Assembly (NCBI GenBank): GCA_016234935.1
Contig: JACRNL010000001.1
Span: 200,679 to 264,678 of the forward strand
From: Deltaproteobacteria bacterium
GTDB lineage: Bacteria > Desulfobacterota > GWC2-55-46
DNA length: 64,000 bases
Direction: 5' to 3'
This document shows, one piece after another, positions 2,497 through 54,790 of the stretch. Made by a program: the position numbers and the translations under genes. The notes beneath the pieces were generated by a model. That model worked only from the letters and a program-made list of their open reading frames with translations, was not told where the DNA came from and ran no database searches. The stretch's first letter is position 1. Every line of letters starts with the position of its first letter.

Positions 2497-4167
2497 CTAA
2501 GCGCTCCATGAAGGCAGTCTTACGGTAAAGACCGTGCCTTCGCCCATGGCCGTTTTAAACGTTATCTCGCCGCCGTAAGTCTTTATGATGCCCTGCGAAA
2601 CGAAAAGACCCAGCCCCGTGCCCTTTCCGACATCCTTCGTGGTGAAAAAGGGGTTGAATATCTTCTCCGCGTCTCCCTCGCTTATGCCGGGGCCGTGGTC
2701 GGTAAATCTTATAAAGACAAACTCCCTCTGAGAGGGTTCAACCCTTGCAAACGCGCCATCCGCCTCACGGCCTGACGGCGTGTCCGTAATTCTTCTCTGG
2801 AGCCGGGCCGAATCAACCGGTTCTTTTTGCACCCCCTGAGGGGGTTCAACCCCTGTTTCAACGGTTATTCCAGCGGACGAGCCCATGCCTGACATGGCCT
2901 GAGCCGCGTTAAGGAGGAGGTTGATAAAGACCTGTCTTAACTTGCCCTCGTCTATAAACACGGGCGGCATCCCGCCTTGCAGAATCATATCCACCTTGAC
3001 CGCCTTGAATGCCTTGTGCATTTCAAGCCCGGCGACCGTATCATTCAAAAGGGCATTGACGTCAACGGCCGCGGCAGCCTTCGCCGAGGGCCTTGCAAGC
3101 TCAAGGAATTCCCTTACGATGGAGTCTATCCGCCCGGCCTCCGTTATCATCCTTCTGATTATATCCCTTTCCCCCTGAGGGGGCTCGGCCCCGTCTTTGT
3201 CCGCGCCGCCTTTTTCCAATATGTCAAGATAGCCCCGGAGCGCGCCCAGCGGGTTTCCAATCTCATGCGCTATGCCGGCGGACAGAGAACCCATTGCCGC
3301 GAGCGTCCTTGACCGCAGGAGTTCATCCTCCGCGTTCACGAGGTCAAGGTTCGCCCTTTCAAGCCTCTTTATCTCCGTCTCCACGCGCCCCGCCATCCTG
3401 TTGAAAGAGGCCGCGAGAGAGCCGACTTCATTTTCGACCGCCACGTCCGCCCTTTGAAAGGGTTCAACCCTCTCGCCAAGCGCGCCTCCAGCGATGCGCG
3501 TTGCCGCGTCATCCAGTTTTTTAATGGGGTTTATTATCGCTTTGGAAAGGAAATAAAAACCGATGGCGATTATGATGACCGAGTCCAGAAGCGCGTAGGC
3601 TATGACAAACCGCTTGACCAGGGCGAGGTCCTGGTTTACGTCCGCAAGCGGCACGTCGAAATCAACGTTGCCGTTTTTTTGCGAAAACGTATCCAGCGAA
3701 GCCGTCACGCGGAGCGCCTCGCCGGCGCCGCCTGAAAACCATCCGCCGCCGATCCTGCGAATCTTCACGCCTTGCGAGAAAAAGAGCTGCTCGGCCGCGT
3801 CCGTTTGAAAAGGCTGAACCCTTTGAAAGGGTTCAGCCTTTTTCACGGAGAAGCCTTCATTCAAAAGCTCCCTGCCGGACGCGTCCGTAAACCTGAATGC
3901 GTTTATGCCGGCCTGTTTGAGCGCTTCGGCGGCAAGGGCCGCCTTTCTTAAGGCGTCCTCTTTTGTCTGCCCGGCAGCGGGAAAACGCGCGAAGATAAAC
4001 CTTACAAACCTTACCGTATTCTCAGCCTCGCTTATCTTCCAGTTGACGCTCCTCATCTCGACGATCTTCACGCTCAAAAGCCCTATGAGACCGATACCTG
4101 CCAACGTCGTCAGGATTATCCCAGCGCCGAGCTGAGAGCGTATGCCGAGGGTAAACTTCATTGTCAA
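2497..4167 (-). CDS. Sensor histidine kinase, periplasmic-sensing, cognate to the sigma-54 activator; PilS-like by position
   Basis: Two transmembrane segments flank a periplasmic domain of about 150 aa. HAMP domain, HisKA H-box (HEIGNPL), HATPase_c G-boxes (DHGPGI, GTGLGL). A 4-bp gap separates it from the response-regulator gene. It carries four in-frame copies of repeat family A. Confidence 0.75.
2832..2853. repeat. Repeat family A unit (CCCCCTGAGGGGGTTCAACCCC), representative copy inside the sensor kinase
   Basis: Near-palindromic. Related copies at 3171, 3451, 3812, 5078, 5296, 5510, 6690, 6870-6930, 11329-11371, 14170, 16913-16988, 26938, 33441, 34681-34716, 35310-35360, 43555, 47228-47264 and 54630-54690. 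Confidence 0.85.
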
Positions 4168-5571: not shown

Positions 5572-6798
5572 CTACGTCCTGTATGCCGAATTTATCTTCA
5601 CATACTCGTAGGTAAGGTCGGTTGTCCAGAATCTCCACGCGGCCTTACCTATGCCGAGGTTGACGGTCATGTTGACCTCTTTTTCTTTCATGACCTTGGC
5701 CGCCTCTTTTTCCTTGCCTGTGTCAAGGCCGCGGCGGGCGACGGGCACGCCGTTAAACGTTATGTCAACCCTGTCTTCCTTCATCCGTATGCCAGCCCTT
5801 CCGAGGGCGGCGATTATCCTGCCACAATTCGGGTCTGCGCCGAAAAAGGCGGTCTTGACGAGCATGGAGGTCGCGATGGTCTTTGCGGCTTTTTTAGCGT
5901 CGCTTATTGTGGCCGCGCCTTTTATGTCTATCTCGATGAACCGCGTGGCGCCCTCGCCGTCTTTCACTATCAGATGGGCAAGCTTTAAAGCGACCTCGCT
6001 TAACATTTTACAAAAGACCTTGTAATCGGCTGTTCCTGATTTTATCTCACGCCCCTTGGCTGCGCCGTTGGCAAAAATCAAAACCGTGTCATTCGTGGAT
6101 GTGTCGTTGTCAACGGCGATGGAATTAAAGGACTTGTCAACGGCTTCCTTCAAGGCCTTTCTCAAGGCCGGATGCTTTATATTCGCGTCCGTCATGATGA
6201 ACGAAAGCATCGTGGCCATGTCCGGGCATATCATCCCAGCGCCTTTGGCGATGCCCGCGACGGTGACGATCTTCCCGCCGATGCGCCCTCTGGCCGTCGC
6301 GGTCTTTTGAAATGCGTCCGTGGTCATTATCGCGCGGGCCGCGTCCGTCAGGCCCAGGCTGCTGAGACCGCGTATAAGCCCCGGCGCTCCGGCCTCTATC
6401 TTTTCAATGGCGGGCATGACGCCGATAACGCCTGTGGAGGCAACGAGTATCTCGCCGCTTTTCAGCCCCAGTCCCTTTTCAATTGCCGAGGCCATGCGGA
6501 GCGCGCTCAAAAACCCGGCCCTGCCCGCGCTTACGTTGGCGTTGCCGCTGTTCACGATAACGCCGCGTGACACGCCCTTTTTCACCCGCTTGATATCAAG
6601 AAGCACGGGAGCGGCCTTGACCTTGTTTTTAGTGAACACCCCGGCGACCGCGGCTTTTGTATCGCTGATGATAAGCGCAAGGTCCAATGCCCCCTGAGGG
6701 GGTTCAACCCCTGTCTTTTTCAGCCCGCAAGCCACCCCGGCGGCCCTGAAACCGGGAACCATCAAATGATGCCTGTTTTTAGCGGTTTTTATCGGCAT
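5572..6798 (-). CDS. argJ: Bifunctional glutamate N-acetyltransferase / amino-acid acetyltransferase ArgJ
   Basis: MPIKTAKN...AAGVACGLKK...ATMLSFIMTDA...YVKINSAYRT, the ArgJ family with the self-cleavage region ATML. Start placed at the internal ATG. The 45-codon upstream extension in the track is repeat-derived. It contains an in-frame VEPPQG insertion. Confidence 0.85.
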   Translation of the reverse strand: MPIKTAKNRHHLMVPGFRAAGVACGLKKTGVEPPQGALDLALIISDTKAAVAGVFTKNKVKAAPVLLDIKRVKKGVSRGVIVNSGNANVSAGRAGFLSALRMASAIEKGLGLKSGEILVASTGVIGVMPAIEKIEAGAPGLIRGLSSLGLTDAARAIMTTDAFQKTATARGRIGGKIVTVAGIAKGAGMICPDMATMLSFIMTDANIKHPALRKALKEAVDKSFNSIAVDNDTSTNDTVLIFANGAAKGREIKSGTADYKVFCKMLSEVALKLAHLIVKDGEGATRFIEIDIKGAATISDAKKAAKTIATSMLVKTAFFGADPNCGRIIAALGRAGIRMKEDRVDITFNGVPVARRGLDTGKEKEAAKVMKEKEVNMTVNLGIGKAAWRFWTTDLTYEYVKINSAYRT

Positions 6799-6869: not shown

Positions 6870-6930
6870 CCCCCTGAGAGGGTTCATCCCATTGAAGGGG
6901 CTCAGCCCCTTGAAGGGGTTCAACCCCCAA
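6870..6930. repeat. Compound repeat family A cluster upstream of argJ
   Basis: ccccctgagagggttcatcccattgaaggggctcagccccttgaaggggttcaaccccc. Confidence 0.8.
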
Positions 6931-7065
6931 CATCCCCTCAAAGACTTTAAAATTTTTTAAAGAGAGTCTGAGAGAACGCCTGCGGTGGGCAAAGCCAAAG
7001 GTTGTATTTTGACTTTAGCCGTGCGCGGCGCCTTTTTTTCAAAAAAGCTTCTCTCAAGAATCCGC

Positions 7066-11089: not shown

Positions 11090-11413
11090 GGATTCCAAGC
11101 CTGTTTATGAAAATCTTTTACATTTTAAAGGGGTCAAGCCCCAATCCGGTAAAAGACAGCGGGAGACTCTTATACTTTTTGTTGCTTAGATTGATTAACA
11201 TACCGTTTACCAAATGTCAAGCCATTATCCGCGGTAAAATCAAACAGGGCGTTCTACGCATGGCCCGCATTCTACGACAATCCCCTTAATCCATCAGTGA
11301 CAAAAATCACCATCCCCCGCTTCAGCCTGCCCTTTGAAAGGGTTCAACCCTTTGAAAGGGTTCAACCCTCGAATGTTTCTATCGGGGGACACGCGAGGAC
11401 AGGAAAAACGGCG

Positions 11414-26900: not shown

Positions 26901-27011
26901 GGAGATTAAAAATACCGTGATGCATTGCAGCGGGTCTGCCCCCTGAGGGGGTTCAACCCCCGGCGCTGATGCAAGCGTCACGGCCTTAGCAGGGCGTCAC
27001 ACCCTTCTGGT

Positions 27012-28391
27012 TTACAGTATATACCTTGAAAGGTCTTCGTTCTTCAAGACCTCCTGAAGCCTGCTCCGCACATACTCCCTGTCAATCACGACATCCTTGT
27101 CGGCAATGTCAGGGGCGTTGAAGGATATCTCGTCAAAGACCCTTTCAAGCACGGTGTGAAGCCTTCTGGCGCCGATGTTCTCCATGCGGTCATTGACCAG
27201 CGCGGCCACGGAGGCTATCTCCATCGCCGCGTCGTCCGCGTAGTTTATTGAAATCTTCTCCGTCTCAAGAAGCGCCTTATACTGCTTAAGGAGCGCGTTC
27301 TCCGGCTCCGTGAGTATCCTGACAAAATCCGCCTCGCCAAGGGATGTAAGCTCCACCCTTATCGGGAACCTGCCCTGGAATTCCGGTATCAGGTCTGAAG
27401 GCTTTGCCACGTGGAACGCGCCTGAGGCGATAAAAAGGATGTGGTCGGTCTTCACCATGCCGTACTTCGTATTCACGGTGGAGCCTTCTACTATCGGCAG
27501 CAGGTCCCTCTGCACGCCTTCCCTTGATACGTCCGGCGTAGAGCCTGTCTGGCGTCCGGCTATCTTGTCTATCTCGTCAATAAAAACTATGCCGGAGAGC
27601 TCCACGCGCTCTATGGCGGTCTTCACGACCTTTTCCATGTCGATCAGCTTCTGCGCCTCCTCCTGCGTCAGGAGCTCAAGTGCCTCCCGCGGCTTCACCC
27701 TTTTTCTGCGCGTCTTTTTTGGAAAGAGGTTTGAAAACATGTCCTTGATGCCCGAGTCCACGTCATCCATGCCCGTAGCGGAAAGTATCTCCATGCCGGG
27801 GGGCCTGCTCTCGGTGATCTCTATCTCAACCGTCCTGTCGTCGAGCTTGCCCTCGCGGAGCTGCGCGCGCAGTTTTTCGCGCGTGGCCTTCTGGAGATCC
27901 CTCTCCTTTAAAAGCCGCTCCTGGCCGGATGCCTGAGAATCAGACGCCTGATAAGACGCGGCCGTCACAGGCGGCAGGAGATAATCAAGGAGCCGCTCCT
28001 CGGCCGCGTCTTTGGCCTTCACGAGCACGCCTGCCTTTTCCTCGTCCTTGACCATCTTCACGCCAAGCTCCGTAAGGTCGCGGATGATGCCTTCAACGTC
28101 GCGCCCGACATAGCCGACCTCGGTGAATTTGCTGGCCTCGACCTTAATGAACGGCGCCTCGGCGAGCTTTGCAAGACGCCTTGAAATCTCGGTCTTGCCC
28201 ACGCCGGTGGGGCCTATCATGATGATGTTCTTCGGATATATCTCATCGCGCAGCCCCCCCTTCACCTGCTGGCGCCGCCAGCGGTTACGCAGCGCAATGG
28301 CCACTGCTCTTTTCGCCTCGGCCTGGCCTATGATGTACTTGTCAAGCTCTGAGACTATTTCTCTCGGAGTAAAATTTTTCATGGTTTTCAA
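27012..28391 (-). CDS. hslU: ATP-dependent protease ATPase subunit HslU
   Basis: [16 protein letters not shown] motif, Walker A GPTGVGKT and a C-terminal conserved region. Confidence 0.95.
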
Positions 28392-28452
28392 CCTGCAAGC
28401 CCGTAGTTATTCATTAAATCCTTATGACGCAAGACATTAGCCCCCGCGCCCC

Positions 28453-28992
28453 TTACGCCAGCTCCTCAACCGTTATCTTGTCGTTCGTGTAGATGCATAT
28501 CTCGGCGGCGGTCTTTATGGCCTCCTCGGCTATTGCCCTTGCTTCAAGGCCGGTGTGCTTTAAAAGCATCTTGGCCGCGCTGAGGGCGTATGGCCCGCCG
28601 GAGCCTATGGACGCTATGCCGTCCTCCGGCTCTATCACGTCGCCGCTGCCGGAGATTACAAACATGTGCTCCCTGTCGGCCACTATCAAAAGGGCCTCAA
28701 GCCGCCTCAGTATCTTATCCGTTCTCCAGTCCTTCGCAAGCTCAACCGCCGCCCTCGTTATATTGCCCCTGTAATGCTCAAGCTTGGCCTCGAACTTGTC
28801 AAAGAGCGTCATGGCGTCCGCGGTGGAGCCGGCAAACCCGGCAAGCACGGACGAATCCCGCATGCGCCTGACCTTTACCGCGCCCTTTTTCATGATGGTC
28901 GCGCCGAGCGTAATCTGCCCGTCGCCGGCTATCGCGACCTTGCCATTTCTGCTGACGGCTATGACCGTTGTTCCGTGGAATTCTATGGGCAA
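28453..28992 (-). CDS. hslV: ATP-dependent protease subunit HslV
   Basis: TTVIAV N-terminal Thr nucleophile context and GSGG motif. 179 aa. Confidence 0.95.
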
Positions 28993-29019
28993 TGATGCCT
29001 CCTGCAGCCTGTAACGGCG

Positions 29020-30039
29020 TTATTTCTTTATCCGCGCCTTCGGGTGCGACCTGTCGTATGTTTCCATCAGCGTATCGAGGCTGACCCTGGCGTAACGAGC
29101 GGTGGTGGAGAGCCGCGAATGGCCTAACATCTCCTGAATCGTCCGTAAGTCCACGCCGGCGTCTAAAAGGTGCGTAGCGAATGTGTGCCTGAGGGAATGC
29201 GGCGTCGGCGTCTTGTTTATGCCGCTCTTTCCGGCATACTTCCTCGTGAGCCTTTGCACCATGCGCGGGTAGATGCGTTTACCGCTTTCGAGGGTGTGAC
29301 ACCCTGCGACCGTAAAGAACGGCGTGTCCGGGCCGTATGCCCCCCGGAACTTCAGATACTCCTTTACCGAACGGGCCGCGTGCTCTCCAAGAAAGGCTAT
29401 GCGCTCCTTGCCGCCCTTGCCCAAAACCTTTATCGTGCCGGCGCCGAGGTCAACGTCCTTCATGTCAAGCCCAACAAGCTCGCTGACCCTTATTCCGGAT
29501 GAATAGAGCACCTCAAGGATGGCCAGATCGCGCATTATCGAAAGGGTGTGACTCCCCGCGAGGGATTGCCTCCCCGCAAGGGTCTGAGACCCTGCAAGGG
29601 TATTGTCCTTCTTATTCGCATCCTCTGACGGCCTTCGCGGGGCCTCTATCAAAAAGGCCGCCTCCTCAACGGTCAAGACCGTCGGCAGGAAGGCCTCGAC
29701 CTTGGGCGACGGTACGAACTCGGCCGGATTCGCCTTGAGCGCGCCCTTTTTAACCAAAAACCTGAAAAACGACCTTATAGCGGACAGCTTCCTTGCAACA
29801 GATACCTTCCGGCACCTATCATGGACAGAATAGGCAAAGGCCCTTACAGCGTCTTCGTCAATCAGCGCAGCGTCAACGCCCTTGCAGGGTGTCACACCCT
29901 GTGCGCCCGCGGCAAACCCGGTCTCTTTCAAAAAGAGTTCAAACTGCCTCAGATCCCGCTCATAATTAAGCCGCGTATGAACGGAGGCGTTCCTTTCAAC
30001 CTCAAGATACGTCAAAAAATCCGCTATCAGCTCCAGCAT
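29020..30039 (-). CDS. xerC: Tyrosine recombinase XerC/XerD family, with three in-frame repeat insertions
   Basis: R..H..R..Y catalytic residues (HSLRHTFATHLL, LGHSRLSTTARY). Classic xerC-hslV-hslU synteny. Insertions GVTPCKG, TLAGSQTLAGRQSLAGSHTL and AGCHTLESG are encoded by family-B repeats. Confidence 0.8.
   Translation of the reverse strand: MLELIADFLTYLEVERNASVHTRLNYERDLRQFELFLKETGFAAGAQGVTPCKGVDAALIDEDAVRAFAYSVHDRCRKVSVARKLSAIRSFFRFLVKKGALKANPAEFVPSPKVEAFLPTVLTVEEAAFLIEAPRRPSEDANKKDNTLAGSQTLAGRQSLAGSHTLSIMRDLAILEVLYSSGIRVSELVGLDMKDVDLGAGTIKVLGKGGKERIAFLGEHAARSVKEYLKFRGAYGPDTPFFTVAGCHTLESGKRIYPRMVQRLTRKYAGKSGINKTPTPHSLRHTFATHLLDAGVDLRTIQEMLGHSRLSTTARYARVSLDTLMETYDRSHPKARIKK
29543..29600. 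repeat. Three degenerate 18-bp tandem units of repeat family B inside xerC
   Basis: gggtgtgactccccgcgag / ggattgcctccccgcaag / ggtctgagaccctgcaag translates as TLAGSQ-TLAGRQ-SLAGSH. Confidence 0.8.
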
Positions 30040-30196
30040 ATTTTACCGGTTAAAAAAAGGGAGTGACTCCCTGCGAGGGTATGAAACCCTGCTGCTGATA
30101 ATCCGCTTTTACACGTGCCTTATAACATCAAAAGGTGAAACCTTCAACAGAAAACAGCGCGTTCGGAGCGGTATATAAGACTTCTCCATATGCCTT

Positions 30197-30868
30197 TTAA
30201 CGTATCAACTGCCCTATCCTCTTAAACCGTATCCAGTGATCGTCGTGATCCCACGACCAGTAGATGACAAATGCCCTGCCCTTTACGTCATAAAGGGGCA
30301 CGCTTCCCCAGTAACGGGAGTCAAAGCTCCTGTCGCGGTTATCGCCCATGACGAATATAGACCCCTGGGGCACGGTGTATGGGCCGAAGTTGTCCATCTT
30401 GTCAAAGCCCATGCCGGCGCCGTTCTTGAATACTGAATGCGAATCTTCAATCTGTTTGCCGTTAATGTAGATAACCCTGTGCCTTATCTCGACCGTATCG
30501 CCGGGAAGCCCTATCGCGCGCTTGATGTAGTCCTTGCTCCTGTCGCCTGGAAAGCGGAATACCACGACGTCCCCGCGCTCTACCTTGCCCCACGCGTTGT
30601 AGAGCTTCGTCTCAAGAAAAGGCACCCTGACGCCAAAGACCTCTATCATCGCGGGCGTTGGCACCTGCACGCCGTAAGCGAACTTGCTTACGATGAGATG
30701 GTCGCCGACAAGGAGCGTGTCCTCCATGGATCCCGACGGTATCTTGAAGGCCTGTATCACAAACGCCCTTATTATAAGCGCCAGCACGAGGGCAATTACA
30801 ATTGCCTCGACCGTCTCCCATATCTGTTTTTTCCTGCTTTTCTTTTCTTCGGCCTTTTCAGACGCCAT
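30197..30868 (-). CDS. lepB: Signal peptidase I
   Basis: SGSMEDTL catalytic Ser region and GDNRDRSFDSRYWG box E. N-terminal TM. Confidence 0.9.
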   Translation of the reverse strand: MASEKAEEKKSRKKQIWETVEAIVIALVLALIIRAFVIQAFKIPSGSMEDTLLVGDHLIVSKFAYGVQVPTPAMIEVFGVRVPFLETKLYNAWGKVERGDVVVFRFPGDRSKDYIKRAIGLPGDTVEIRHRVIYINGKQIEDSHSVFKNGAGMGFDKMDNFGPYTVPQGSIFVMGDNRDRSFDSRYWGSVPLYDVKGRAFVIYWSWDHDDHWIRFKRIGQLIR

Positions 30869-30969
30869 GCCTAACCTTCCTGATGCGGGAGACGCGCTCC
30901 CATCGCAGGGTGAAACACCCTTTTATTGTTTATCCGTCGCAGGGCGTCGCGCCCTTTTACCGGCTTCAT

Positions 30970-32766
30970 TCAATTCACCTTAAGCACCGCAAGGAACGCC
31001 TCCTGCGGCAGTTCCACGCGGCCCACCTGCTTCATCCTCTTCTTGCCTTCCTTCTGCTTTTCAAGGAGCTTTCTCTTTCTCGTTATGTCGCCGCCGTAGC
31101 ACTTGGCAGTGACGTTTTTCCTCAGCGCCTTTATCGTCTCCCTGGCGATTATCTTCGCGCCAATGGCAGCCTGGATGATGACCTCGAACATCTGTCTGGG
31201 GATTATCTCCTTCATCTTTTCAGCTAAAACCTTGCCCCTTGCGTACGCGCTCTCGGACGGAACTATCAACGAAAGCGCGTCAACCACCTCGCCGTTTATG
31301 AGGATGTCGAGCTTTATGAGCCTAGACACCCTGAAGTCGAGGTAATCGTAGTCCATCGAGGCATAGCCCTTTGTAAGGGTCTTGAGCTTATCGTAAAAAT
31401 CAAGGACGATTTCATTGAGCGGAAGTTCGTACTCAAGGAGCACCCTTGCCGGGGTCAGATACTTTATCTCGCGCTGTATGCCGCGCTTGTCCTCGCAGAG
31501 CTTTAGTATCGCGCCTAAATACTCCGACGGCATGTGGATAGAGGCAAGGATAAACGGCTCTTCCACCATGCTGACATTCTGAGGCGGAGGAAGTTTCGTA
31601 GGGTTGTCCACCATCAAGACCTCTCCGTCGGTCTTCGTTACCCTGTAAGCGACCGTCGGCGCGGTGGTAATGAGGGACAGGTCATACTCCCTTTCAAGCC
31701 TCTCCTGGATTATTTCCATATGGAACAGGCCGAGGAAGCCGCACCTGAAGCCGAAACCCAGGGCAAGCGACGTCTCAGGCTCAAAGGTAAATGACGAATC
31801 ATTCAGACGCAGCTTTACGACCGCGTCTTTCAAGTCCTCATACTGCGATGAGTCCACCGGGTAAAGCCCGCTGAAGACCATTGATTTGGAAGCCTTGTAA
31901 CCGGCAAGCGCCTCGGCGGCGGGGTTTGCGGCGTCAGTCAGCGTGTCGCCGACGCTCGTATCGCGCACCTCTTTTATTCCGGCTATCACGAAGCCGACCT
32001 CTCCGGGCCCAAGCTCGGCTGTCTCACGCGGATGAGGGGTGAACACGCCGACCTTGTCAACGTCAAAGGTCTTGCCCGTTGCCATGAACTTTATCCTGCT
32101 GCCCCTTTTTATTACTCCGTCAAAGACCCGTATCTGTATGATGACGCCCTGATAGTTGTCATACCAGCTGTCGAAGACAAGCGCCTTCAAGGGCTTGTTC
32201 CCGTCGCCCGCCGGCGGCGGTATCCTCTTTACTATGGCCTCAAGCGTCTCTTTTATGCCCTTGCCTTCCTTGGCGCTCGTCAGCACCGCGTCGGACGCGT
32301 CAAGGCTCAGAAGGTCTTCTATTTCGGCCTTTATGCGCTCCGGGTCCGCCTGCGGCAGGTCTATCTTATTAAGCACAGGCACTATCTCAAGCCCGACGTC
32401 CTGAGCCGTATACAGATGCGCGAGTGTCTGCGCCTCGACTCCTTGAGAAGCGTCGACTATCAAAAGCGCGCCCTCACAGGCGGACAAAGACCTGCTCACC
32501 TCGTAGCTGAAGTCCACGTGGCCGGGCGTGTCAATGAGGTTCAGCACATACATCTTGCCGTCGTCGGCCTTGTAATTGAGCCGCGCCGTCTGCGCCTTGA
32601 TGGTAATGCCCCTCTCCCTTTCGAGGTCCATCTTATCCATGAACTGATCGACCATCTCTCTCTTGGTCACGGTACCAGTGAATTCAAGGAGCCTGTCCGA
32701 GAGCGTGGACTTGCCGTGGTCAATGTGAGCGATAATCGAAAAGTTCCGTATCCTGTCTTTTTCCAT
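30970..32766 (-). CDS. lepA: Elongation factor 4 (LepA)
   Basis: [16 protein letters not shown]1 motif, DTPGHVDF and the LepA C-terminal domain. lepA-lepB synteny. Confidence 0.95.
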
Positions 32767-33017
32767 TTTTTCCTTTTAGCAGGGCTTTCGAGCAGCCCTT
32801 TAAAACCTTCGCAGGGTGTAACACCCTGCCTTCCCGGCGCCAGCCTCGCAAGGCGCATCCGCGCCTGACGATACGAACTGCAATTTATCATTTTATGATA
32901 TAATGTCATGCTTTGTCAAAGCCTGTTTGCCTCCTGCCCTCGCCGTGTGCTTAAAGCGGGGGATAGAATAGCGGCTTGCCTGTGCGCTTACAAACCAATG
33001 CGCAGACGGCCCGGTTC

Positions 33018-33075
33018 AGGGCGCGACACACTGCGACGGTGTGACACCCTGCGAGGGTGCAGCGCCCTGCGAGGT
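33018..33075. repeat. Repeat family B cluster (GCAGGGTGTGACACCCTGCGAGGG units)
   Basis: cagggcgcgacacactgcgacggtgtgacaccctgcgagggtgcagcgccctgcgagg. Related copies at 26990, 29291, 29543-29600, 29881, 30059-30099, 30904-30958, 32809, 33402, 33712, 34233, 34583 and 37172. Confidence 0.85.
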
Positions 33076-33112
33076 TGACATTACGGCGTTATTTTTGGTA
33101 TCTTACTTAGTG

Positions 33113-33376
33113 ATGACATCGAACGATTTGGGACTATTAACGCTTCTTGTATGCGCCGCCTTTGTTTTAAACCTGCCGTTCGGTTACCTCAGGATAAAGA
33201 CAAAGAAGTTCTCGGTCATGTGGTTTCTCTACATCCACCTGCCCATCCCGTTTATCTTCATCCTGCGGAAAGCGGCGGGCTTTAGCTGGAAGGTCATACC
33301 GGTAATAGTCATAGGCGCGGTAATGGGCCAGTACCTGGGCGGAAAGCTCCGCAAAAAAATACCATCGCAATCTTAA
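33113..33376 (+). CDS. Small hypothetical membrane protein
   Basis: Two or three predicted TM helices (LLTLLVCAAFVLNLPFG, VIPVIVIGAVMG). The 24 upstream codons in the track ORF are repeat-derived (TPCEG). Confidence 0.3.
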   Translation: MTSNDLGLLTLLVCAAFVLNLPFGYLRIKTKKFSVMWFLYIHLPIPFIFILRKAAGFSWKVIPVIVIGAVMGQYLGGKLRKKIPSQS

Positions 33377-33426
33377 CCTTCGCCATATCACCGGCTTGCA
33401 GGGCGTCACACCCATTCGGAGAGGCC

Positions 33427-33909
33427 ATGGCAGGAAAAGACCCCTTGAAGGGGATCAGCCCCTTTAAAATAAGCTCCGTCATATCAAAATCCTACGCGCA
33501 TCTCGGCATAGAGGCCAAACTGCGCGAACATCACATCAAAAAAACATGGGCCGAAGCCGTTGGAAACCTCATCGCCGCAAAGAGCTCCCCGTCAAGGCTC
33601 ATAGGCACGACCCTCTACTGCGTCGTGTCGTCCGCGCCGTGGATGTCTGAACTGTCCTATCAAAAACCCGTCATCATAGCGCGGTTGAACGAACTGCTCG
33701 GCAAGGGCGTGACACCCTGCGTGGGCGCCGTCACCGAGATAGTCTTCAAGCCCGGCAAGGTCGCCAGCCGCGCCCCAAAGGCCGCGAAGGCAGCTCATCG
33801 AAAACTTACACATGAAGAAAAAGAAGCCATCGAAGAGACCGTAAAGCCCGTAAAAGACGAAACGCTCAAAGCCCTGATAAAACGTGCAATGGAAAAGGCA
33901 AAGGGTTAG
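33427..33909 (+). CDS. DUF721 / DciA-like protein
   Basis: TLYCVVSSAPWMSELSYQKPVIIARLN matches the DUF721 (DciA) signature. Contains an in-frame GVTPC repeat insertion. Start uncertain. Confidence 0.5.
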   Translation: MAGKDPLKGISPFKISSVISKSYAHLGIEAKLREHHIKKTWAEAVGNLIAAKSSPSRLIGTTLYCVVSSAPWMSELSYQKPVIIARLNELLGKGVTPCVGAVTEIVFKPGKVASRAPKAAKAAHRKLTHEEKEAIEETVKPVKDETLKALIKRAMEKAKG

Positions 33910-34631
33910 CAGCCTGCTATTCCAGCCTCTATAAAAAATACCTTCGTCTTTTTTCCATTTGCCATTTCCTCTCGTAAAATCCGCATTGGCTTAATGCCAA
34001 GCGCATCCATCTCTGAAATCATCTCATCCAGTCTTGCCGATGGAAATACAAAAAACATCCTGCCGCCATTGCCTGCAAGGTGACTGGAAACGGCCAGCAT
34101 GTCTTGAAGCCCTCCCATGACCTCGCTCCGGCCAATTCTTCTTGCCGGATCCGGGCTTTGCCTTCCTGCACCGGCCTTTGCGTATGGAGGGTTACTTATG
34201 ACGATATCAAAGGAGCCTTCCGGATAATCAGCGGACTCGCAGGACGTCACGCCCAAATTTCTGTAATCGCCTGCCACTATTTTTATCCTCGACGACAGAC
34301 CGTTCAGCCGCACATTCCTTTCGGCAAGCGCGGCGCAGCCGTCCACCACCTCGACGCCGGTGATTTCCGTCGCCGTTGTTTTAGCCGCGATAAGAATGGG
34401 CATTACCCCCGTGCCGGCGCCGAGGTCAATAATCTTCGAGTCCTTGCCTATACTTTCAAGGACGAAATTTACGAGAAGGATGGAGTCCTGCGTATATCTG
34501 TTGCCGGATCTTTTCTGGATAAAGGAATACGGGCCGATTGGTTCAATCGTCTCGGTCTCCGGGTCGAAAGCGTCATCCGGCTCGCAGGGTGTCACACCCT
34601 TCAATTTGATGCCCGCGGAGTTCTTTTGCAT
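33906..34631 (-). CDS. SAM-dependent N6-adenine methyltransferase (TrmN6/YfiC-like)
   Basis: DLGAGTGV SAM motif I and DIVISNPPY motif IV. Carries KGVTPCE and GVTSCESADY repeat-encoded insertions. Confidence 0.7.
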   Translation of the reverse strand: MQKNSAGIKLKGVTPCEPDDAFDPETETIEPIGPYSFIQKRSGNRYTQDSILLVNFVLESIGKDSKIIDLGAGTGVMPILIAAKTTATEITGVEVVDGCAALAERNVRLNGLSSRIKIVAGDYRNLGVTSCESADYPEGSFDIVISNPPYAKAGAGRQSPDPARRIGRSEVMGGLQDMLAVSSHLAGNGGRMFFVFPSARLDEMISEMDALGIKPMRILREEMANGKKTKVFFIEAGIAGC

Positions 34632-34741
34632 TCAGTTTGCTTTAGAATGGAGTTTTTTTGCCCGCCTTTTTTCTAAAAAAGGGGTTGAACCCCCTGAGGG
34701 GGCTCAGCCCCTTCAAGCGGGCAAGAAATGAGCTGCAACCG

Positions 34742-36163
<1,422 letters not shown>

Positions 36164-36336
36164 AATTTTAAAACCCTCCGGGATATCTGTAAGTTGAAAA
36201 AATACTTTACGGGGCTGAATTTATTAATTTACTACTCGAAAAAACGGTTGTCAATGGAAAAAGGGAGGAGGATGCTTTCAGTAAAACCCGCATGGCAAGG
36301 CTTTTACCGGGCCTCGCCATTTTTCCCCGAAGTTTA

Positions 36337-36873
36337 TCACAGATACTTCTTTACCGCCTCATCCCACCTGCCCTGCGCTTTCAGGATCAGTTCGACGACT
36401 TCCCTTACCGCCCCTTTTCCGCCGGGCTTCATCGTGATGTAATGCACCCTCTGCTTCACCTCGTCAACCGCATCCGGCACGCAGATGGCGAGGCCGGCCC
36501 TTTTTAGCACGGGAATGTCGACGACGTCGTCACCCATGTAGGCGGTCTCTTCCGTTTTAAACCCTTCTTTTTCCAAGAGGTCGTCATAGGCCTTTGCCTT
36601 CTCAATGGCCCCCTGATAAAGCAGTTCTATGCCGAGGTTTTTGGCCCTGTGCTTTACGACGTCCGATTGCCTCGCGGTTATTATCGCCGCCTTTATCCCC
36701 GCCCTCTGGAGCATTTTTATGCCGTGGCCGTCGCGCACGTTGAAAAACTTCGTCTCCTCGCCCCTGTCGTTGTAGATTACCGAGCCGTCCGTCATCACGC
36801 CGTCAACGTCCATGATGAGAAGTTTTATCGGTTTTATCCGTTTAATCAAATCGCCGCCAAGTTCGATAGCCAC
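36337..36873 (-). CDS. kdsC: 3-deoxy-D-manno-octulosonate 8-phosphate phosphatase (HAD family)
   Basis: LLIMDVDGVMTDG HAD motif I and GDDVVD motif. About 178 aa. Confidence 0.8.
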   Translation of the reverse strand: MAIELGGDLIKRIKPIKLLIMDVDGVMTDGSVIYNDRGEETKFFNVRDGHGIKMLQRAGIKAAIITARQSDVVKHRAKNLGIELLYQGAIEKAKAYDDLLEKEGFKTEETAYMGDDVVDIPVLKRAGLAICVPDAVDEVKQRVHYITMKPGGKGAVREVVELILKAQGRWDEAVKKYL

Positions 36874-36890
36874 GCCTGCCTCCGGTGAAA

Positions 36891-39041
36891 TTATATTGCC
36901 TCAACCCTTACGCTGAAAGAAAACCCGGTGCTGGCAGGCGCGTCCAGATTCACGGGCATGAGAAAGACGAGGCACGCGCCCTGGAATATCTTTTCAAAAC
37001 CGGCCTCTGAAAGAGAGACCGAATAAATAGGGAACCTCCAGAGCCTGACCGGCGTCGAGACTTCTATGGTCACGCAGACGCCTGTGAATTTGTCAATCAG
37101 GCTGACGCCCTCCACGCCGGAAAGCTCTCCGGCGCTCCCAAGGCCGATGCCGGTTCCATCAATGCGCGCCCCCTCGCAGGGTGTCACACCCTTGAAATTA
37201 TAAAGGCACGCCGGACCGTCGCAGCACGGCAGAAGAAGATTTAATTCCACCGCCAGCAGAACCTCTCCGGGCGTATCGTCGCGCGCGTCTACGATGTCGT
37301 TGTCGACGCGGTAGCTCACGGTGAAGCCGTCCGCGCCGAGCGGCCTTATCTCCTTGGCGACAAAGACGCTTACGCCTTTCACGTCCGACCACTTTGAGAG
37401 GGAGAAGCCCTTGCCGTCATCGTCCACAAGGCATTCAAAGCGGCCATACGGGAAGTCCGCAAGCTCCGCATGGGTGTTCGCGCTGAACTCGGCAAACGTC
37501 GTCTCCCTGCCGATTACGTGCTCAACGAACGATCCTCTCCTGCGCGTGTCGAGCGTAAGGAGCTTATCAAGCCCCTTTTCCTTTACCAGCAGAAGGTCAT
37601 GTATGCTTTTAGCCGCCTCGAAGGCGCCGCCTGTCGCTATCTTTTCGAGCTTATGGTGGTAGCCCTCGGGCCATCGCGTGAGGACGTTCGAAAGGTTCAG
37701 CGCCTTTTTCATGTAATCAAACTCATAAAGGCCGCCGCCAATTCCGGGCGAAAAAAATAGGTTAAGTCCCGCTGTCTTTAAAATCACCTCGTCGTTGCCG
37801 TCGGCGTCCATGTCGGTCTTTTCTATGGAATTTCCCCCGCCGCCGCGCGCCTCCGCGACAAGCCGCTCAGCGGTCAAGAGGTTCTCATACACGGCAGTTC
37901 GCAGATGCGGCAGGTAAAGCCCGCCGAACACGCCGTGCCAGTACGCGTCGTTGCACTGTGCCTTATACAGCGCGCGCGTCGCCTCGCCCAGCGTCTTGTC
38001 TCCCGGCTTTAAGGCGCGCGCCTCCCCAAGCTCCATGCTGACCATGAGCATCCTCTTGTGCATCCAGTTGGCCTCAGGGTATTTAGCCATAAAATTCCTC
38101 CAGATGCCGCCCTGAACGAACTGCTTTATGCGCGACCCGTTGTCCCATTGCGCCGCGTCGTCCATAAGCGCGCCGTATGCCCTTGACGACGGCGCAGGCA
38201 GGGCCCACTCACCCATCTCCATGTATGACGTCGTCGGCAGATAGACCCTGCCAAGCGGATCCTCGGCGTCTATCAACCCCGCGAGAGTCACCGGGCGGAG
38301 CCAATCCGCGGACTCTTCTATCTTTTTAAAAAAAGCCTTAAGCCATCCTTCGTCGTAGACCGATTTATGCGTGCCCGGCCACACGCCGAACTTCTCGCCG
38401 TCGTCGCCGTAAATGGCGGCTTTGCCGCGGGTGAGCGTCGTCTTCAAAGACCTTAAATATCCTTCGAGACTGTCAACCGGCTGAAACGGTATCATGTAGC
38501 GCATGGTCTCGCTGCCAGGGAATATCTTGACCGTATTGCCCATATCCTCGGTGATGTAGTAGCCGCCGAGTTCCTCTTTAGGGATGCCGGACCTCACAAA
38601 ATGGTAATCATCAACGAGCAGATACTCGACACCCGCGTTTTTAAGCGTCGTGGGGAGCGTAGGCTCCCAGACCCTCTCGGCAAGCCAGATGCCGCGCGGA
38701 CGCGCGCCGAAAAGCTCCTCTATCCTGTCTGCCATCATCTTTATCTGCCCGATTCTGTCGCATTCAGGGATTACCGAAAGCACCGGCTCGTAGTGCGCGC
38801 CGCCCATTATCTCGACCTGGCGGGCAGATACCATTTCCTTAAGGAGCCCGATGTATTCGGGATGGCTCCGGGCTATCCAGTCAAGGAGAAAACCTGACGT
38901 ATGCAGCGTCAATTTTACCGATGGATATTTTGAAAGCAACTTCAGGAAGGGCCAATAAGCATTCTCATACGCATCTTCAAGGACATGGGGGAAGTTGCCG
39001 ACAGGCTGATGGTTGTGTATGCAGAAAGCGAAATATGTCAT
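36891..39041 (-). CDS. Glycoside hydrolase family 57 protein (alpha-glucan acting)
   Basis: CIHNHQPVGNF GH57 signature at the N-terminus. Large C-terminal extension. One in-frame GVTPCEG insertion. Confidence 0.75.
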   Translation of the reverse strand: MTYFAFCIHNHQPVGNFPHVLEDAYENAYWPFLKLLSKYPSVKLTLHTSGFLLDWIARSHPEYIGLLKEMVSARQVEIMGGAHYEPVLSVIPECDRIGQIKMMADRIEELFGARPRGIWLAERVWEPTLPTTLKNAGVEYLLVDDYHFVRSGIPKEELGGYYITEDMGNTVKIFPGSETMRYMIPFQPVDSLEGYLRSLKTTLTRGKAAIYGDDGEKFGVWPGTHKSVYDEGWLKAFFKKIEESADWLRPVTLAGLIDAEDPLGRVYLPTTSYMEMGEWALPAPSSRAYGALMDDAAQWDNGSRIKQFVQGGIWRNFMAKYPEANWMHKRMLMVSMELGEARALKPGDKTLGEATRALYKAQCNDAYWHGVFGGLYLPHLRTAVYENLLTAERLVAEARGGGGNSIEKTDMDADGNDEVILKTAGLNLFFSPGIGGGLYEFDYMKKALNLSNVLTRWPEGYHHKLEKIATGGAFEAAKSIHDLLLVKEKGLDKLLTLDTRRRGSFVEHVIGRETTFAEFSANTHAELADFPYGRFECLVDDDGKGFSLSKWSDVKGVSVFVAKEIRPLGADGFTVSYRVDNDIVDARDDTPGEVLLAVELNLLLPCCDGPACLYNFKGVTPCEGARIDGTGIGLGSAGELSGVEGVSLIDKFTGVCVTIEVSTPVRLWRFPIYSVSLSEAGFEKIFQGACLVFLMPVNLDAPASTGFSFSVRVEAI

Positions 39042-47115: not shown

Positions 47116-47403
47116 TTCCCTTTTCACCTCCCTGTTGACGCCTTCTTTGTGAAAGACGCCTCGTAACGCATCAGTTCCGTATACTTTTCCATTTCAAAAT
47201 CAACAAGCAGCAAACGCCCTGACAATTTGAAGGGGTTCAACCCCTTGAAGGGGCTCAGCCCCCAAACGGCATAAATCATACCATCTCTTAATGCGCAAGC
47301 AAAGAAAAAAACAGTTGCCTTTCTTGAAAGGCCGGATACCCGGCGGCTCACGCCGCAGGCATGACAAACCGGACTATGCAAATGATATCTTCCTTGCCCG
47401 CGC

Positions 47404-48240
47404 TTATTCCAAACGGGTTTTAACGCTTCCCGCGCCGCCTTCGGCGCCATTATTGCCGCCGCACCTTTTAAGCGCGCCCTCAAGGGGTATTATCGAACAG
47501 GCGAGCGTTTCAAAGTTCGACAAAGGACTGACGGCCTCGTCAATTGTAAATACGCCGCTTGCCATGCGTCTCAGGTCAAACAGATGGCCGCCGCATCCGA
47601 GGGCAGCCCCCGCGTCATGGCAGATAGACCTTACGTAAGTCCCCTTGGAACACTTTACGCTGAACTCCACAAACGGCATTGATATGCCCAGTATCTCGAA
47701 GGAGTGTATCTCAATCTCCCGCGCCTCGCGCTCGACTTCAACGCCTTTTCTCGCAAGCGTGTAGAGCGGAACGCCGTGCTTTTTTATCGCCGAATACATC
47801 GGCGGGGTCTGCATCATCTTTCCGGCGAAACCCCTTAAAACTCCTCTTACGTCCGCGTCCGTAAGACTGCCAGTCTCGCCGCGCCTGACTACCTGCCCTT
47901 CTTTATCGTATGTGTCGGTATCCTCGCCGAGCTTGAGCGTTGCGGAGTAGACCTTCACTGCGCCGCCGCCAAGCGAGTCGGCGAACTTTGTCGCGCCGTT
48001 TATGACAAGGGGCAGCACCCCGGTAGCCATAGGGTCGAGCGTGCCAAGATGCCCCACCTTCTTAGCGTCGAGCGTCCTTTTTACCTTCGCCACGACATCG
48101 TGCGACGTCCATCCGGCAGGCTTATCGGCAACCAGCACCCCGCCGAAGAGGAGTTCGGGGGCATCGTCCGCCGAACCTTCGCATAAAGGGCGCGCAAGAG
48201 AGCGTCCGCGGCTCTGTTTTTTTAAAAATCCGCCATTCAT
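47404..48240 (-). CDS. truB: tRNA pseudouridine(55) synthase
   Basis: GVLVADKPAGWTSHDVV and GHLGTLDPMATGVLPL catalytic Asp motif. Confidence 0.9.
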   Translation of the reverse strand: MNGGFLKKQSRGRSLARPLCEGSADDAPELLFGGVLVADKPAGWTSHDVVAKVKRTLDAKKVGHLGTLDPMATGVLPLVINGATKFADSLGGGAVKVYSATLKLGEDTDTYDKEGQVVRRGETGSLTDADVRGVLRGFAGKMMQTPPMYSAIKKHGVPLYTLARKGVEVEREAREIEIHSFEILGISMPFVEFSVKCSKGTYVRSICHDAGAALGCGGHLFDLRRMASGVFTIDEAVSPLSNFETLACSIIPLEGALKRCGGNNGAEGGAGSVKTRLE

Positions 48241-48244
48241 ACGG

Positions 48245-49276
48245 TTACATCATGGCCTTTGGCGGCCTTGCGCCGGCCCCGGTGACCGCGGCCTCCATGA
48301 TCTTTTCCTTAAGAACCGAAATTATTTCGGCCTTTACCTCTTCAAGAGATCCCTTCATACTGCATCCGGCGGCGTTGGCGTGCCCTCCTCCGTCAAACAG
48401 CTGCGAAACAGCGGACACGTCCACACCGCCCTTGGCGCGCATGCTCACCTTGTAGCCGCCAGGCCCGGTCTCGCGGAAAAGCAGGCCAACTGCGACCCCT
48501 TCGATGCCCCTTGCGTAATTCACGAAACCGTCGGCATGGTCTTTGTCCGCGCCGGTCTGCCTGAACATCTCCTGCGTCACGGTGACCATGGCGATGGCGT
48601 TGTCCGGCCCGGCGCCGTCCACCTTCATAACCTCAAGCGTAGCGAGCACCAGGCCGAGAAGCTTATATCTTTTCGCCGGATAATTCTCGTAGACGCGCAT
48701 GGATACGTCCCAGGGGCTTGCGCCAAGCCTTACGAGCTCTCCTGCCTTGATAAACGCCTCTGGCGTGGCGCTGGAATATCTGAACGAACCCGTGTCCGTA
48801 AGGATCGCCACATACAGGTTTGTTGCTATCTCTTTCGTAATGACCGCGCCGGCGGCCTTGCAAAAATCATAAACAACCTCGCCCGCGGAACTTGCGTCCG
48901 GCACGACCACGTTTACGTCGCCGAAACGGTCATTCGTGACGTGGTGGTCCAGATTTATTATAATGCCCGGCTCCTTCAGGGCGATAAAGCCCTTGCCGAG
49001 CCTGTCCTTCTGTCCGCAGTCAACGGCGAATGTAACGTCAAAGCCGCTCGCGCCTGCAAGGCTGTGCGTGACAGTGCCGGCTCCCGGCAAAAACCTGAAG
49101 ATGTCAGGCACCGGGTCTTCCAGATACGCCGTGACGTCCTTGCCAAGCCCCTTCAGGGCAAGGGCCATGCCGATAAGCGAGCCTACCGCGTCGCCCTCAG
49201 GATTTACATGGGAAACGACGAGAAAGCGTTTTGCCTTTTTAACCTTTTCTATTACCGCATCAAAGCGAGAGTCCAT
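48245..49276 (-). CDS. nrnA: DHH/DHHA1 phosphoesterase (NrnA-like oligoribonuclease / pAp phosphatase)
   Basis: HVNPEGDAVGS and DHH motif, with a GGGH DHHA1 motif. Start trimmed; the upstream 34 codons are a family-D repeat. Confidence 0.8.
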   Translation of the reverse strand: MDSRFDAVIEKVKKAKRFLVVSHVNPEGDAVGSLIGMALALKGLGKDVTAYLEDPVPDIFRFLPGAGTVTHSLAGASGFDVTFAVDCGQKDRLGKGFIALKEPGIIINLDHHVTNDRFGDVNVVVPDASSAGEVVYDFCKAAGAVITKEIATNLYVAILTDTGSFRYSSATPEAFIKAGELVRLGASPWDVSMRVYENYPAKRYKLLGLVLATLEVMKVDGAGPDNAIAMVTVTQEMFRQTGADKDHADGFVNYARGIEGVAVGLLFRETGPGGYKVSMRAKGGVDVSAVSQLFDGGGHANAAGCSMKGSLEEVKAEIISVLKEKIMEAAVTGAGARPPKAMM

Positions 49277-49310
49277 TTTCAGATGTCCTGTCGGAATGCC
49301 CCCTGCCTTA

Positions 49311-49346
49311 TCTCCTCCCCCTTCACGGGGGAGGGCAGGGTGGGGG
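49311..49346. repeat. Repeat family D (CTCCTCCCCCTTCACGGGGGAGGGCAGGGTGGGGGT)
   Basis: Reverse-complement copy at 5296-5340. Diverged relatives at 5240-5275, 22371-22420 and 56547-56580. Confidence 0.7.
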
Positions 49347-49374
49347 TTTCTGTTGGCCGGCCGTTCATTCGGCG

Positions 49375-49728
49375 TCATCCTTTTTTTATCTCATTCAGTA
49401 TCCTGCCGATATGGTCTGAATATTCAAGAGATTCATCATAAAAAAAAGTGACGTTGGGAATATGCCTCAGGTCAAGGCGTTTAGCGAGGCTCCTTCTGAT
49501 GTAGCCGCTTGCGTGATTCAATCCTTCACGGCTTTTTTCTATATCTTCGGCGCTGCCTATCTGGCTGAAATAGACCTTCGCCTCCTTGATGTCAGGGCTC
49601 ATCCTTACGTGAGTTATCGTGACAAAACCGATGCGCGGATCTTTGATGTCTCCGTGGAGGATAATCGAGGCTATCTCTTTTTTTACAAGGTCTCCGACCC
49701 TGTCCGAGCGCTTGTATGTATTAGCCAT
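49375..49728 (-). CDS. rbfA: Ribosome-binding factor A
   Basis: RVGDLVKKEIASII...PRIGFVTITHVRMSPD signature. Confidence 0.9.
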   Translation of the reverse strand: MANTYKRSDRVGDLVKKEIASIILHGDIKDPRIGFVTITHVRMSPDIKEAKVYFSQIGSAEDIEKSREGLNHASGYIRRSLAKRLDLRHIPNVTFFYDESLEYSDHIGRILNEIKKG

Positions 49729-49782
49729 GCTGTTGCCCGTTGCCTGATGCCGGTTATCGCCCTTCAAGGAGCTGATAACACT

Positions 49783-50070
49783 TTAACAATTAATCAGCTC
49801 CATCCGGCGGTCTATTATCTCCGCCGTATACAGGCTCTCTATGAAAAAAACAGTCTTGTCTATCGCCGAATTTACGAACGCGCCGTCTGTGCCGACGGCG
49901 GCAATGCCAATCGTCGCCCTCTGCCACATATCGTTGTCGCCGACCTCCGATATCGAGACGTTGAAGCGGCCTTTGACCTTTTCCATGATGCTCTTCAAGA
50001 CCTGCCTCTTCTCCTTGAGGGAATGACTGTCATGGATAGCAAGCGTTATTCGAACAATGCCGATTACCAT
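49783..50070 (-). CDS. DUF503 (YlxP-like) protein
   Basis: 95 aa. Conserved infB-ylxP-rbfA position. Confidence 0.7.
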   Translation of the reverse strand: MVIGIVRITLAIHDSHSLKEKRQVLKSIMEKVKGRFNVSISEVGDNDMWQRATIGIAAVGTDGAFVNSAIDKTVFFIESLYTAEIIDRRMELINC

Positions 50071-50130
50071 AAAGAAGTCGCCTGTTGCAGGTCAAGACGG
50101 AAATGAACGGAGATTTATCATTTAATTTGC

Positions 50131-54613: not shown

Positions 54614-54790
54614 AACGTCTCCAGAAATTCCCCTTGAATGTGTTCAACCCCCTGAGGGGGCTCAGCCCCTTGAAGGGGGTCACCCCCCGCATCGCGGGCT
54701 TGCTGTGCAAAGAAACAACTCTTTGCGCGCTGTCTATGACCGGCTTTTTTCACGTCCGCCGCGTCCTGTCGTAGGCCCGGCCCTTAGAAA

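Follow-up and report, generated by a model that had tools for sequence, protein, structure and literature searches.

In-frame copies of an 18-bp palindromic repeat unit in a XerC-like recombinase gene from a Desulfobacterota-type lineage

Introduction

Intragenic repetitive extragenic palindromic (REP) sequences have been described in several bacteria, where many lie in replication or repair genes and often occur as dimers or groups encoding 20–30 amino acids (Di Nocera et al. 2013, PMC3733652), and the Rickettsia palindromic elements (RPEs) are the classic example of in-frame palindromic insertions (Ogata et al. 2000, 2002; review PMC10969869). Here we describe a palindromic unit with an 18-bp period that recurs along 64,000 nucleotides of a Deltaproteobacteria bacterium contig (JACRNL010000001.1, assembly GCA_016234935.1; this whole 64-kb stretch is hereafter the window), and that interrupts, in frame and at three places, a gene encoding a XerC-like tyrosine recombinase. 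We interpret the units as a selfish mini-repeat whose copies in xerC are in-frame passengers of a recombinase that is probably functional and unrelated to them, a joint reading to which we assign a probability of roughly 75%. As such the unit is an unusually small variant of selfish palindromic repeat, for which intragenic REPs and RPEs are published precedents; a literature search returned no description of the unit itself or of 18-bp in-frame palindromic arrays.

The recombinase gene had been singled out from the sequence (hereafter the original prediction) as a possible hotspot of repeat insertion, raising the questions of whether its product still works and whether the repeats are related to Xer recognition sequences.

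Results

Repeat units in xerC

The product of the xerC-like open reading frame (ORF) is 339 residues long in the window versus 296–320 in most orthologues, and 30 of its extra residues correspond to repeat units at three sites (Table 1), each consisting of one or more GGGTGTSACACCC+YGCRA units; the peptide NTLAGSQTLAGR, predicted from the translation, is an example spanning the inserts. This agrees with the original prediction, which had reported three in-frame repeat insertions, one of them an array of three 18-bp units, in a XerC-like recombinase. All three segments are absent from orthologues at 55–60% identity in an alignment of 24 homologues (alignment A1), so that the extra residues are, as had also been proposed, repeat copies rather than conserved orthologue residues. 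The three units of site 2 have diverged from one another (pairwise identity at 12–14 of 18 positions), and the array was not reported by Tandem Repeats Finder.

Table 1. Positions of the recombinase gene, its repeat units and other features in the window.
Feature	Position	Strand	Description	Basis
xerC-like tyrosine recombinase ORF	29020..30039	-	339 aa; no stop or frameshift	translation, hidden Markov model (HMM), alignment
Site 1	29884..29901	-	one family-B unit, CAGGGTGTGACACCCTGC on the coding strand; QGVTPC, residues 47–52	
Site 2	29548..29601	-	three tandem 18-bp units, cores 29544, 29562, 29580; TLAGSQ-TLAGRQ-SLAGSH, residues 147–164	
Site 3	29290..29307	-	single unit, core 29292–29304; AGCHTL, residues 245–250	
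Spacer array	30059..30094	.	two family-B units, ~20 bp upstream of the xerC start	
HAMP/HisKA/HATPase_c histidine kinase	2497..4167	-	five A/A' sites, six units; cores near 3810, 3459, 3180, 2841, 2733	
argJ unit	6694..6716	-	one family-A unit, GVEPPQ; the L026 orthologue lacks exactly these 6 aa	
GH57 alpha-amylase/glucanotransferase unit	37174..37196	-	single family-B unit, KGVTPCEG	
hslV	28453–28992	-	directly downstream of xerC	translation
hslU	27012–28391	-	downstream of xerC	translation

The best NCBIfam match of the protein is XerC (TIGR02224; E 8e-85, 284.8 bits), with XerD second at about 40 bits lower, and Pfam matches to Phage_int_SAM_1 (PF02899) and Phage_integrase (PF00589) indicate the two-domain architecture of this group. 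XerD was among the best matches in a sequence search of the PDB, and a Foldseek search with an AlphaFold model returned XerA, XerD and the integron integrase IntI (E 1e-9 to 3e-13). An identical protein, MBI5887273.1, carries the NCBI name "tyrosine-type recombinase/integrase". Residues R184, K208, H281, R284, H307 and Y316 are all present and are invariant across alignment A1, consistent with the expectation that the catalytic set had been kept. Furthermore, the gene evolves under constraint outside the repeats (dN/dS 0.17–0.21 at a dS of 0.26 in comparisons with L001 and L002 that exclude the repeat segments), and its frame is open in three independent assemblies, the window and strains L001 and L002, despite several indels. 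The neighbourhood is that of a chromosomal housekeeping gene, with hslV and hslU downstream and lepB and lepA upstream, and L001 and L002 share the order of xerC and the proteasome-type genes with the window. The pseudogene reading, named in advance as one of the outcomes that would overturn the prediction, does not hold, and conservation of the sequence suggests that XerC is still active.

Site 1 falls in the loop between the N-domain helices at residues 20–40 and 62–73, site 2 in the loop joining the first two helices of the catalytic domain, a loop that aligns to XerD residues 124 to 131, and site 3 in the turn that precedes the catalytic-domain helix 258–272. The original prediction had placed the array in the inter-domain linker, which holds only approximately: the array follows the first catalytic-domain helix. 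The PF00589 match is split at this point and starts, at residue 169, with profile position 22, while the match of the insertion-free homologue P0004 begins at position 2. In the AlphaFold model, the predicted local distance difference test score (pLDDT) drops below 50 at residues 46–49, 142–158 and 247–251, low-confidence, non-helical segments that coincide with sites 1, 2 and 3. The loops of sites 1 and 2 also vary in length in other orthologues, with long lineage-specific loops in P0049, P0052 and P0088, for example. The inserts thus appear to be tolerated in loops that are predicted to be flexible.

Variation among strains at xerC

The strain comparators are short-read metagenomic contigs of 1.6–4.6 kb; those with DNA for xerC encode proteins P0003 (on L001) and P0002 (on L002), with 83–84% protein identity to the window XerC. 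Site 1 is a clean 18-bp gap in both strains, and no more distant orthologue has it. The site 2 array of L002 is shorter than that of the window by exactly 18 bp, and the order and type of units there differ in all three strains. L001 carries an additional 18-bp unit (LAGRHV) at site 3, and the array upstream of xerC contains two units in the window, two in L001 and three in L002. Exact 18-bp indels therefore occur at four places of the xerC locus (the three sites and the upstream array) among three strains, which is the type of variation, resembling that of a variable number tandem repeat (VNTR), that had been anticipated for this gene. Since the short state of sites 1 and 3 is also the outgroup state, these events are gains, and judged from the alignments the XerC insertions are recent.

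Two further observations concern the same comparators. At site 2, both L001 (~681–750) and L002 (~700–750) contain a 16-nt short unit, GGGTCGTGCCC+TCGCA, that shifts the units against the codon register, such that the array of one strain reads GVTP(C/R).G first and LAG.. after it, with the ORF staying open. Upstream, homology between the strains (L001 1–130, L002 1–150) and the window (30190–30300) ends about 150 bp from xerC, at the 3' end of the window lepB; L001 and L002 seem to have another upstream neighbour, which places a synteny break beside the spacer array.

Architecture, hairpin potential and distribution of the units

Each unit is a 13-nt GGG-N7-CCC palindrome followed by a 5-nt spacer, giving an 18-bp period equal to six codons; counting flanks, the longest palindrome is 23 bp. 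Two families share this architecture and are identical at 11 of 18 consensus positions: family B, GGGTGTSACACCC+TGCGA (GGGT-GTCAC-ACCC-TGCGA), and family A/A', GGGGYTCARCCCC+TTGAA (GGGG-YTCAR-CCCC-TTGAA, or AGGG...CCCT). With up to two mismatches allowed, the window holds 28 copies of the core, versus 0.85 expected.

The potential of the core to form a hairpin is kept by compensatory changes. Among 52 aligned units, 88% of cells in the 6-bp stem are paired, compared with 73% in shuffled alignments, and stem changes affecting both sides number 45 versus 19.6; none of 500 shuffles reached the observed values, and slid controls were much lower. Examples include GGGGTTCAACCCC versus GGGGCTCAGCCCC, and GGGTCTCAGACCC or GGGAGTCACTCCC versus GGGTGTCACACCC. 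The unit is conserved as DNA: its frame of translation gives GVTPC(E/K) in five genes but AGCHTL or TLAGSQ in xerC, and it is common in spacers. The array just upstream of xerC has a DNA folding z-score of -5.7.

The units are depleted from genes. Of 46 confident units at 33 sites in the 64 kb, 20 lie inside nine Pfam-supported genes, corresponding to 0.41 units per kb there versus 1.72 per kb elsewhere, a roughly fourfold difference.

The families also differ in distribution: family A is spread across 2.7–54.7 kb of the window, while all 15 family-B sites (20 units) fall within 26,987–37,196, a confinement to 10.2 kb that simulation almost never reproduces (P <1e-5). This stretch covers hslU, hslV, xerC, lepB, lepA, dciA and genes for a methyltransferase, a DUF1015 protein and a GH57 enzyme, and all B-bearing sequences from other samples (L001, L002 and L015) are orthologous to it. 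The clustering suggests a locally born variant that spreads over short range. Hybrid units with a family-B core and an A-type spacer (TTCAA/TTGAA) occur at 34587 (34582–34604) and 37179 (37174–37196), and an intermediate A/B core, GGGGGTCACCCCC, at 54675 (54670–54692); the hybrids point to exchange between families A and B or to their common descent.

Several spacer units combined with a T-run score as intrinsic terminators: one at 30072–30058 (-) after lepB, one at 34695–34680 (34680–34706) (-) after the DUF1015 gene, and others at 30907–30921 (+) and 33439–33456 (-). Some units may thus serve as terminators or derive from them. Arrays of two to three A/A' units also occupy spacers or doubtful ORFs at 6874–6932, 11334–11374, 47227–47267 and 54634–54692; neither the ORF at 47124–47483 nor that at 54159–54989 matches Pfam, and both may be artefacts of the stop-free repeats.

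Units in other genes and other genomes

Besides XerC, the unit-bearing genes encode a HAMP histidine kinase, ArgJ, RecN, DciA, a methyltransferase, a DUF1015 protein, a GH57 glucanotransferase and an M16 peptidase, which are mutually unrelated housekeeping functions. Insertions are confirmed as indels against orthologues for XerC, the kinase, ArgJ, GH57 and a GlcF-like gene, while units in RecN, DciA, DUF1015, the M16 peptidase and the methyltransferase are assigned by their position inside the ORF.

The kinase is the most heavily loaded example. Two of its sites fall within the HATPase_c match and one within the HisKA match, and in L024 (90% identity), L026 and orthologues at ~55% identity each of the five is an exact gap of 18 or 36 bp, so that the outgroup again has the short state and the differences are insertions. 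Two strains that are 90% identical differ by five independent insertions in this one gene. A third strain, L025, carries its own, partly different set, bringing the locus to seven polymorphic sites over four strains, with zero, one or two units at site H5. By comparison, L024 and L026 are free of units over 2.6 and 4.6 kb, respectively.

In ArgJ, the alignment to a PDB entry began just past the insert. Where the window has one unit in the GH57 gene, the orthologue on metagenome contig L015 carries four, an exact 54-bp difference, and the adjacent GlcF-like gene has two family-A units on L015 versus none in the window. Close relatives thus differ in their load, and the element has been active recently. 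Taken across loci, copy-paste adds copies one or two periods long at previously empty sites, and arrays gain or lose units in 18-bp steps between strains.

A metagenome scan with GGTGTGACACCCTGCRAG recovered 15 loci, among which L015 was the sole true relative, orthologous to 36.9–40.5 kb of the window. A scan of a genome collection with the 19-mer GCAGGGTGTSACACCCTGC gave six single matches in unrelated phyla, which is chance level for a query so strict that even the window holds no exact copy. Viral contigs gave no matches to the scan, Rfam gave none at gathering thresholds, and a peptide query of five GVTPCE and five AGCHTL repeats, short and compositionally biased, had none at E <=1e-3 among 5.8 billion proteins.

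Apart from the repeats, two long ORFs (479 and 214 aa) without Pfam match occupy 48002–50106 (+), between infB and rpsO. The usual operon order presumably puts rbfA and truB between these genes, with minus-strand genes expected at 48002–50106; given this and the uniformly negative GC skew, the two are probably shadow ORFs.

Discussion

Selfish units carried as passengers

The units behave as selfish, REP/RPE-like DNA that is lineage-specific, and in XerC the repeats are probably passengers rather than substrates of the enzyme. Copies may survive in genes because the period equals six codons, most frames are free of stops and the small, flexible peptides that they encode (e.g., GVTPCE, AGCHTL and GVEPPQ) abound in Gly, Pro, Thr and Ser. 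Purifying selection would then retain solely those copies that land in tolerant loops.

As to how the copies arise, we lean somewhat towards microhomology-guided templated copying from nearby units. A hairpin could stall replication or repair, after which the template would switch to a nearby unit or a gene-conversion-like patch would form, and slippage would then alter the number of units. At three of eight junctions the first four bases of the unit are identical to an RGGG in the flank (control probability of at least 4 nt, 0.036), and the A/G variant is matched as well, with AGGG units adjoining AGGG flanks and GGGG units adjoining GGGG. Substitutions right beside several inserts also make the flank more unit-like, as at xerC site 1 (ACTGCC to CAGGGC) and at kinase sites H5 and H6. 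The confinement of family B to one 10-kb region fits this mode of copying too.

Several points weigh against the selfish-passenger reading and this mode of copying. Junction microhomology is modest (five of the eight sites have 0–2 nt), the 64-kb window yielded no mobilising enzyme or donor locus, and the regional clustering of family B could also result from local hopping of a transposon. Some unit counts could reflect population heterogeneity or assembly choices, the comparators being short metagenomic contigs. The structural model of XerC is of moderate quality (pLDDT 80.3, predicted TM-score 0.58), and the inserts score low in pLDDT partly because the alignment lacks them. Finally, the activity of XerC is judged from conservation of its sequence.

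A more ambitious version of templated copying would make the units an ultra-small class of mobile DNA, undescribed before, that spreads without a dedicated transposase and is remodelling essential proteins of an uncultivated Desulfobacterota lineage by changing the length of their loops. We consider this speculative and somewhat unlikely; if it were true, the lineage would offer a natural system for the birth of mini-repeats and for rapid indel evolution in proteins.

Alternative explanations

Alternatively, the units may be non-autonomous elements moved by a single-stranded DNA (ssDNA) transposase encoded elsewhere, related to the REP-associated tyrosine transposases (RAYTs) or IS200-IS605-like HUH Y1 enzymes. 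Such a transposase would recognise the hairpin and insert it beside an RGGG/CCCY target picked by base pairing. This is possible, if not the explanation we would choose. The units are hairpins with a stem preserved by covariation, and the RGGG flanks that equal the first four bases of the unit, A/G variant included, resemble the guide-directed targeting of IS608. REPs with a GTAG tag are, moreover, associated with RAYTs (PMC3733652). However, the boundaries of the inserts are fuzzy, with adjoining substitutions, and the identity at junctions ranges between 0 and 4 nt. The end tags of REPs are rare or absent near the unit ends (GTAG/CTAC at 0 of 46 units, CGTC/GACG at 3 of 46), and the unit is shorter than every REP substrate described in PMC3733652. 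A Pfam scan of 50 window ORFs turned up no transposase, which is weak counter-evidence as the gene could lie elsewhere.

It is quite improbable that the insertions have inactivated, or are inactivating, the recombinase, leaving a decaying or neofunctionalised copy while another Xer system does the work. This possibility draws on the generic NCBI name, on the array that interrupts the catalytic profile, and on the TIGR02224 score, which falls below the curated cut-off (284.8 vs 335.15 bits) with a match in two stretches. However, once the 30 residues encoded by repeats are removed in silico, the profile again matches end to end in one stretch (299.2 bits), and the insertion-free members of the clade, P0024, P0029 and P0004, are also under the cut-off, at 317–319 bits. 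Nor does decay fit a dN/dS of ~0.2, retained catalytic residues, an ORF intact in three strains and a conserved xerC-hslVU context, and no second recombinase was found within the window. As a separate observation, the whole XerC clade (P0004, P0024, P0029 and the window protein) scores 299–319 vs 335 bits without insertions, and some of its members are named XerC by NCBI.

The repeats are very unlikely to be XerC's own recognition or recombination sites, whether dif-like or like those of integrative mobile elements exploiting Xer (IMEX), with the enzyme acting on its neighbourhood. Such a role would be consistent with the location of every family-B site of the window within 10 kb around xerC, and with a 23-bp palindrome that, if formally divided into two 8-bp inverted arms and a 7-bp centre, comes near the geometry of a tyrosine-recombinase core. 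The conserved dif core is ATAA-N6-TTAT, and the units contain nothing like it; neither the E. coli dif nor a degenerate proteobacterial dif consensus had a match in the 64-kb window, and GC skew is uniform with no switch, which places the window away from the replication terminus. Family A, with a different sequence, behaves identically far from xerC, for example at the five sites of the kinase at 2.5–4.2 kb. Moreover, tyrosine recombinases swap strands between two existing sites and create no 18-bp insertions at naive sites, which disfavours this explanation further. The suggestion that the repeats are related to Xer recognition sequences is thus not borne out, and a link between the repeats and recombinase activity is not supported by the sequences. 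The companion suggestion, that XerC is a special hotspot, also fails: the recombinase has three sites, the kinase has five with six units, ArgJ, RecN, DciA and other proteins carry units as well, and the units of an array are not independent.

Still less credible is selection on the repeated peptides as protein modules, for instance a binding or redox role for the Cys-containing GVTPCEG. The GVTPC frame is used at five of seven intragenic family-B sites and the GH57 gene of L015 has four near-perfect GVTPCE units, yet what is conserved is the DNA pairing rather than the peptide, the host proteins are functionally unrelated, and strains at 84–90% identity lack the units. We rejected protein-level selection on the peptides because xerC uses a different frame of the unit and because the unit is abundant in non-coding spacers.

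Metagenome assembly artefacts in repeats are an equally remote source of the 18-bp differences: the comparators are all short metagenomic contigs, but the arrays (at most 72 bp) are under typical read length, the same orthologous sites are filled in independent NCBI, Logan and JGI assemblies, and all differences are exact 18-bp multiples that keep the frame.

Implications

As an extreme form of intragenic selfish DNA, a unit of six codons can apparently colonise essential genes, among them xerC, argJ, a sensor kinase gene and recN, without destroying them, resulting in strain-level length polymorphism in protein loops. Turnover is high at 84–90% identity and filled and empty sites are cleanly distinguished, so the data are relevant to the long-standing question of whether REP-like mini-repeats are copied by transposase or by templated repair. 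There are also practical consequences for annotation, where inserts split profile matches and lower HMM scores (the protein here has a generic NCBI name), and for strain-resolved metagenomics, which variation in unit number can confound. We see no sign of new Xer biology.

Comparison with known systems

The recombinase itself is closest to XerC and XerD (XerD 1a0p; XerA 4a8e and 5hxy), with which it shares the two-domain architecture, the R-K-H-R-H-Y set and XerC as best HMM, and from which it differs in its 30 extra residues in three loops and a score below the TIGR02224 cut-off.

Among repeats, the units most resemble REPs and bacterial interspersed mosaic elements (BIMEs). Both are short G+C-rich stem-loops, high in copy number, mostly extragenic and often near the 3' ends of genes; both occur as singletons and clusters, vary among strains and include a minority of in-frame copies in genes, especially those for DNA replication and repair (here XerC, RecN and DciA). 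The units are thus dispersed, high-copy stem-loops, as REPs are, but their 13-nt core and 18-bp period (longest palindrome 23 bp) fall short of the 20–40 bp of REPs, and the GTAG/CGTC tag is missing (0 and 3 of 46 units). They are also arranged head-to-tail at a fixed 18-bp period, in contrast to the head-to-head or tail-to-tail dimers with linkers formed by REPs, and unlike REPs and their doublets (REPINs) they have no established RAYT association, with no transposase among the 50 ORFs scanned.

RPEs are the nearest parallel for the intragenic copies, as palindromic selfish DNA found in frame in unrelated housekeeping genes and apparently compatible with folding and function. However, RPEs are ~100–150 bp long, encode peptides of 30–50 aa and form no short tandem arrays, whereas the unit is 18 bp, encodes 6 aa, varies in copy number in a VNTR-like manner and is read in at least two frames. 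The hosts differ as well, an obligate intracellular bacterium versus a free-living, environmental Desulfobacterota-type lineage.

Cyanobacteria offer a further parallel in their small dispersed repeats (SDRs) and the highly iterated palindrome HIP1, reportedly the subject of work by Elhai et al. in 2008. These too are tiny, abundant palindromic repeats of a lineage that also occur within coding regions (PMC5861425, PMC4390886), but HIP1, a motif of 8 bp, is created by substitution rather than insertion, SDRs are 21–27 nt long and do not form codon-phased arrays, and neither is related in sequence to the units. Miniature inverted-repeat transposable elements differ in being 70–300 bp long, with terminal inverted repeats and fixed target-site duplications, while the inserts here are 18 or 36 bp, have neither of these features and show junction identities of 0–4 nt. 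Intragenic VNTRs share the change in copy number by unit steps between close strains, with the frame kept, but they are repeats born at their locus, whereas the units described here form a dispersed palindromic family across many unrelated genes and spacers.

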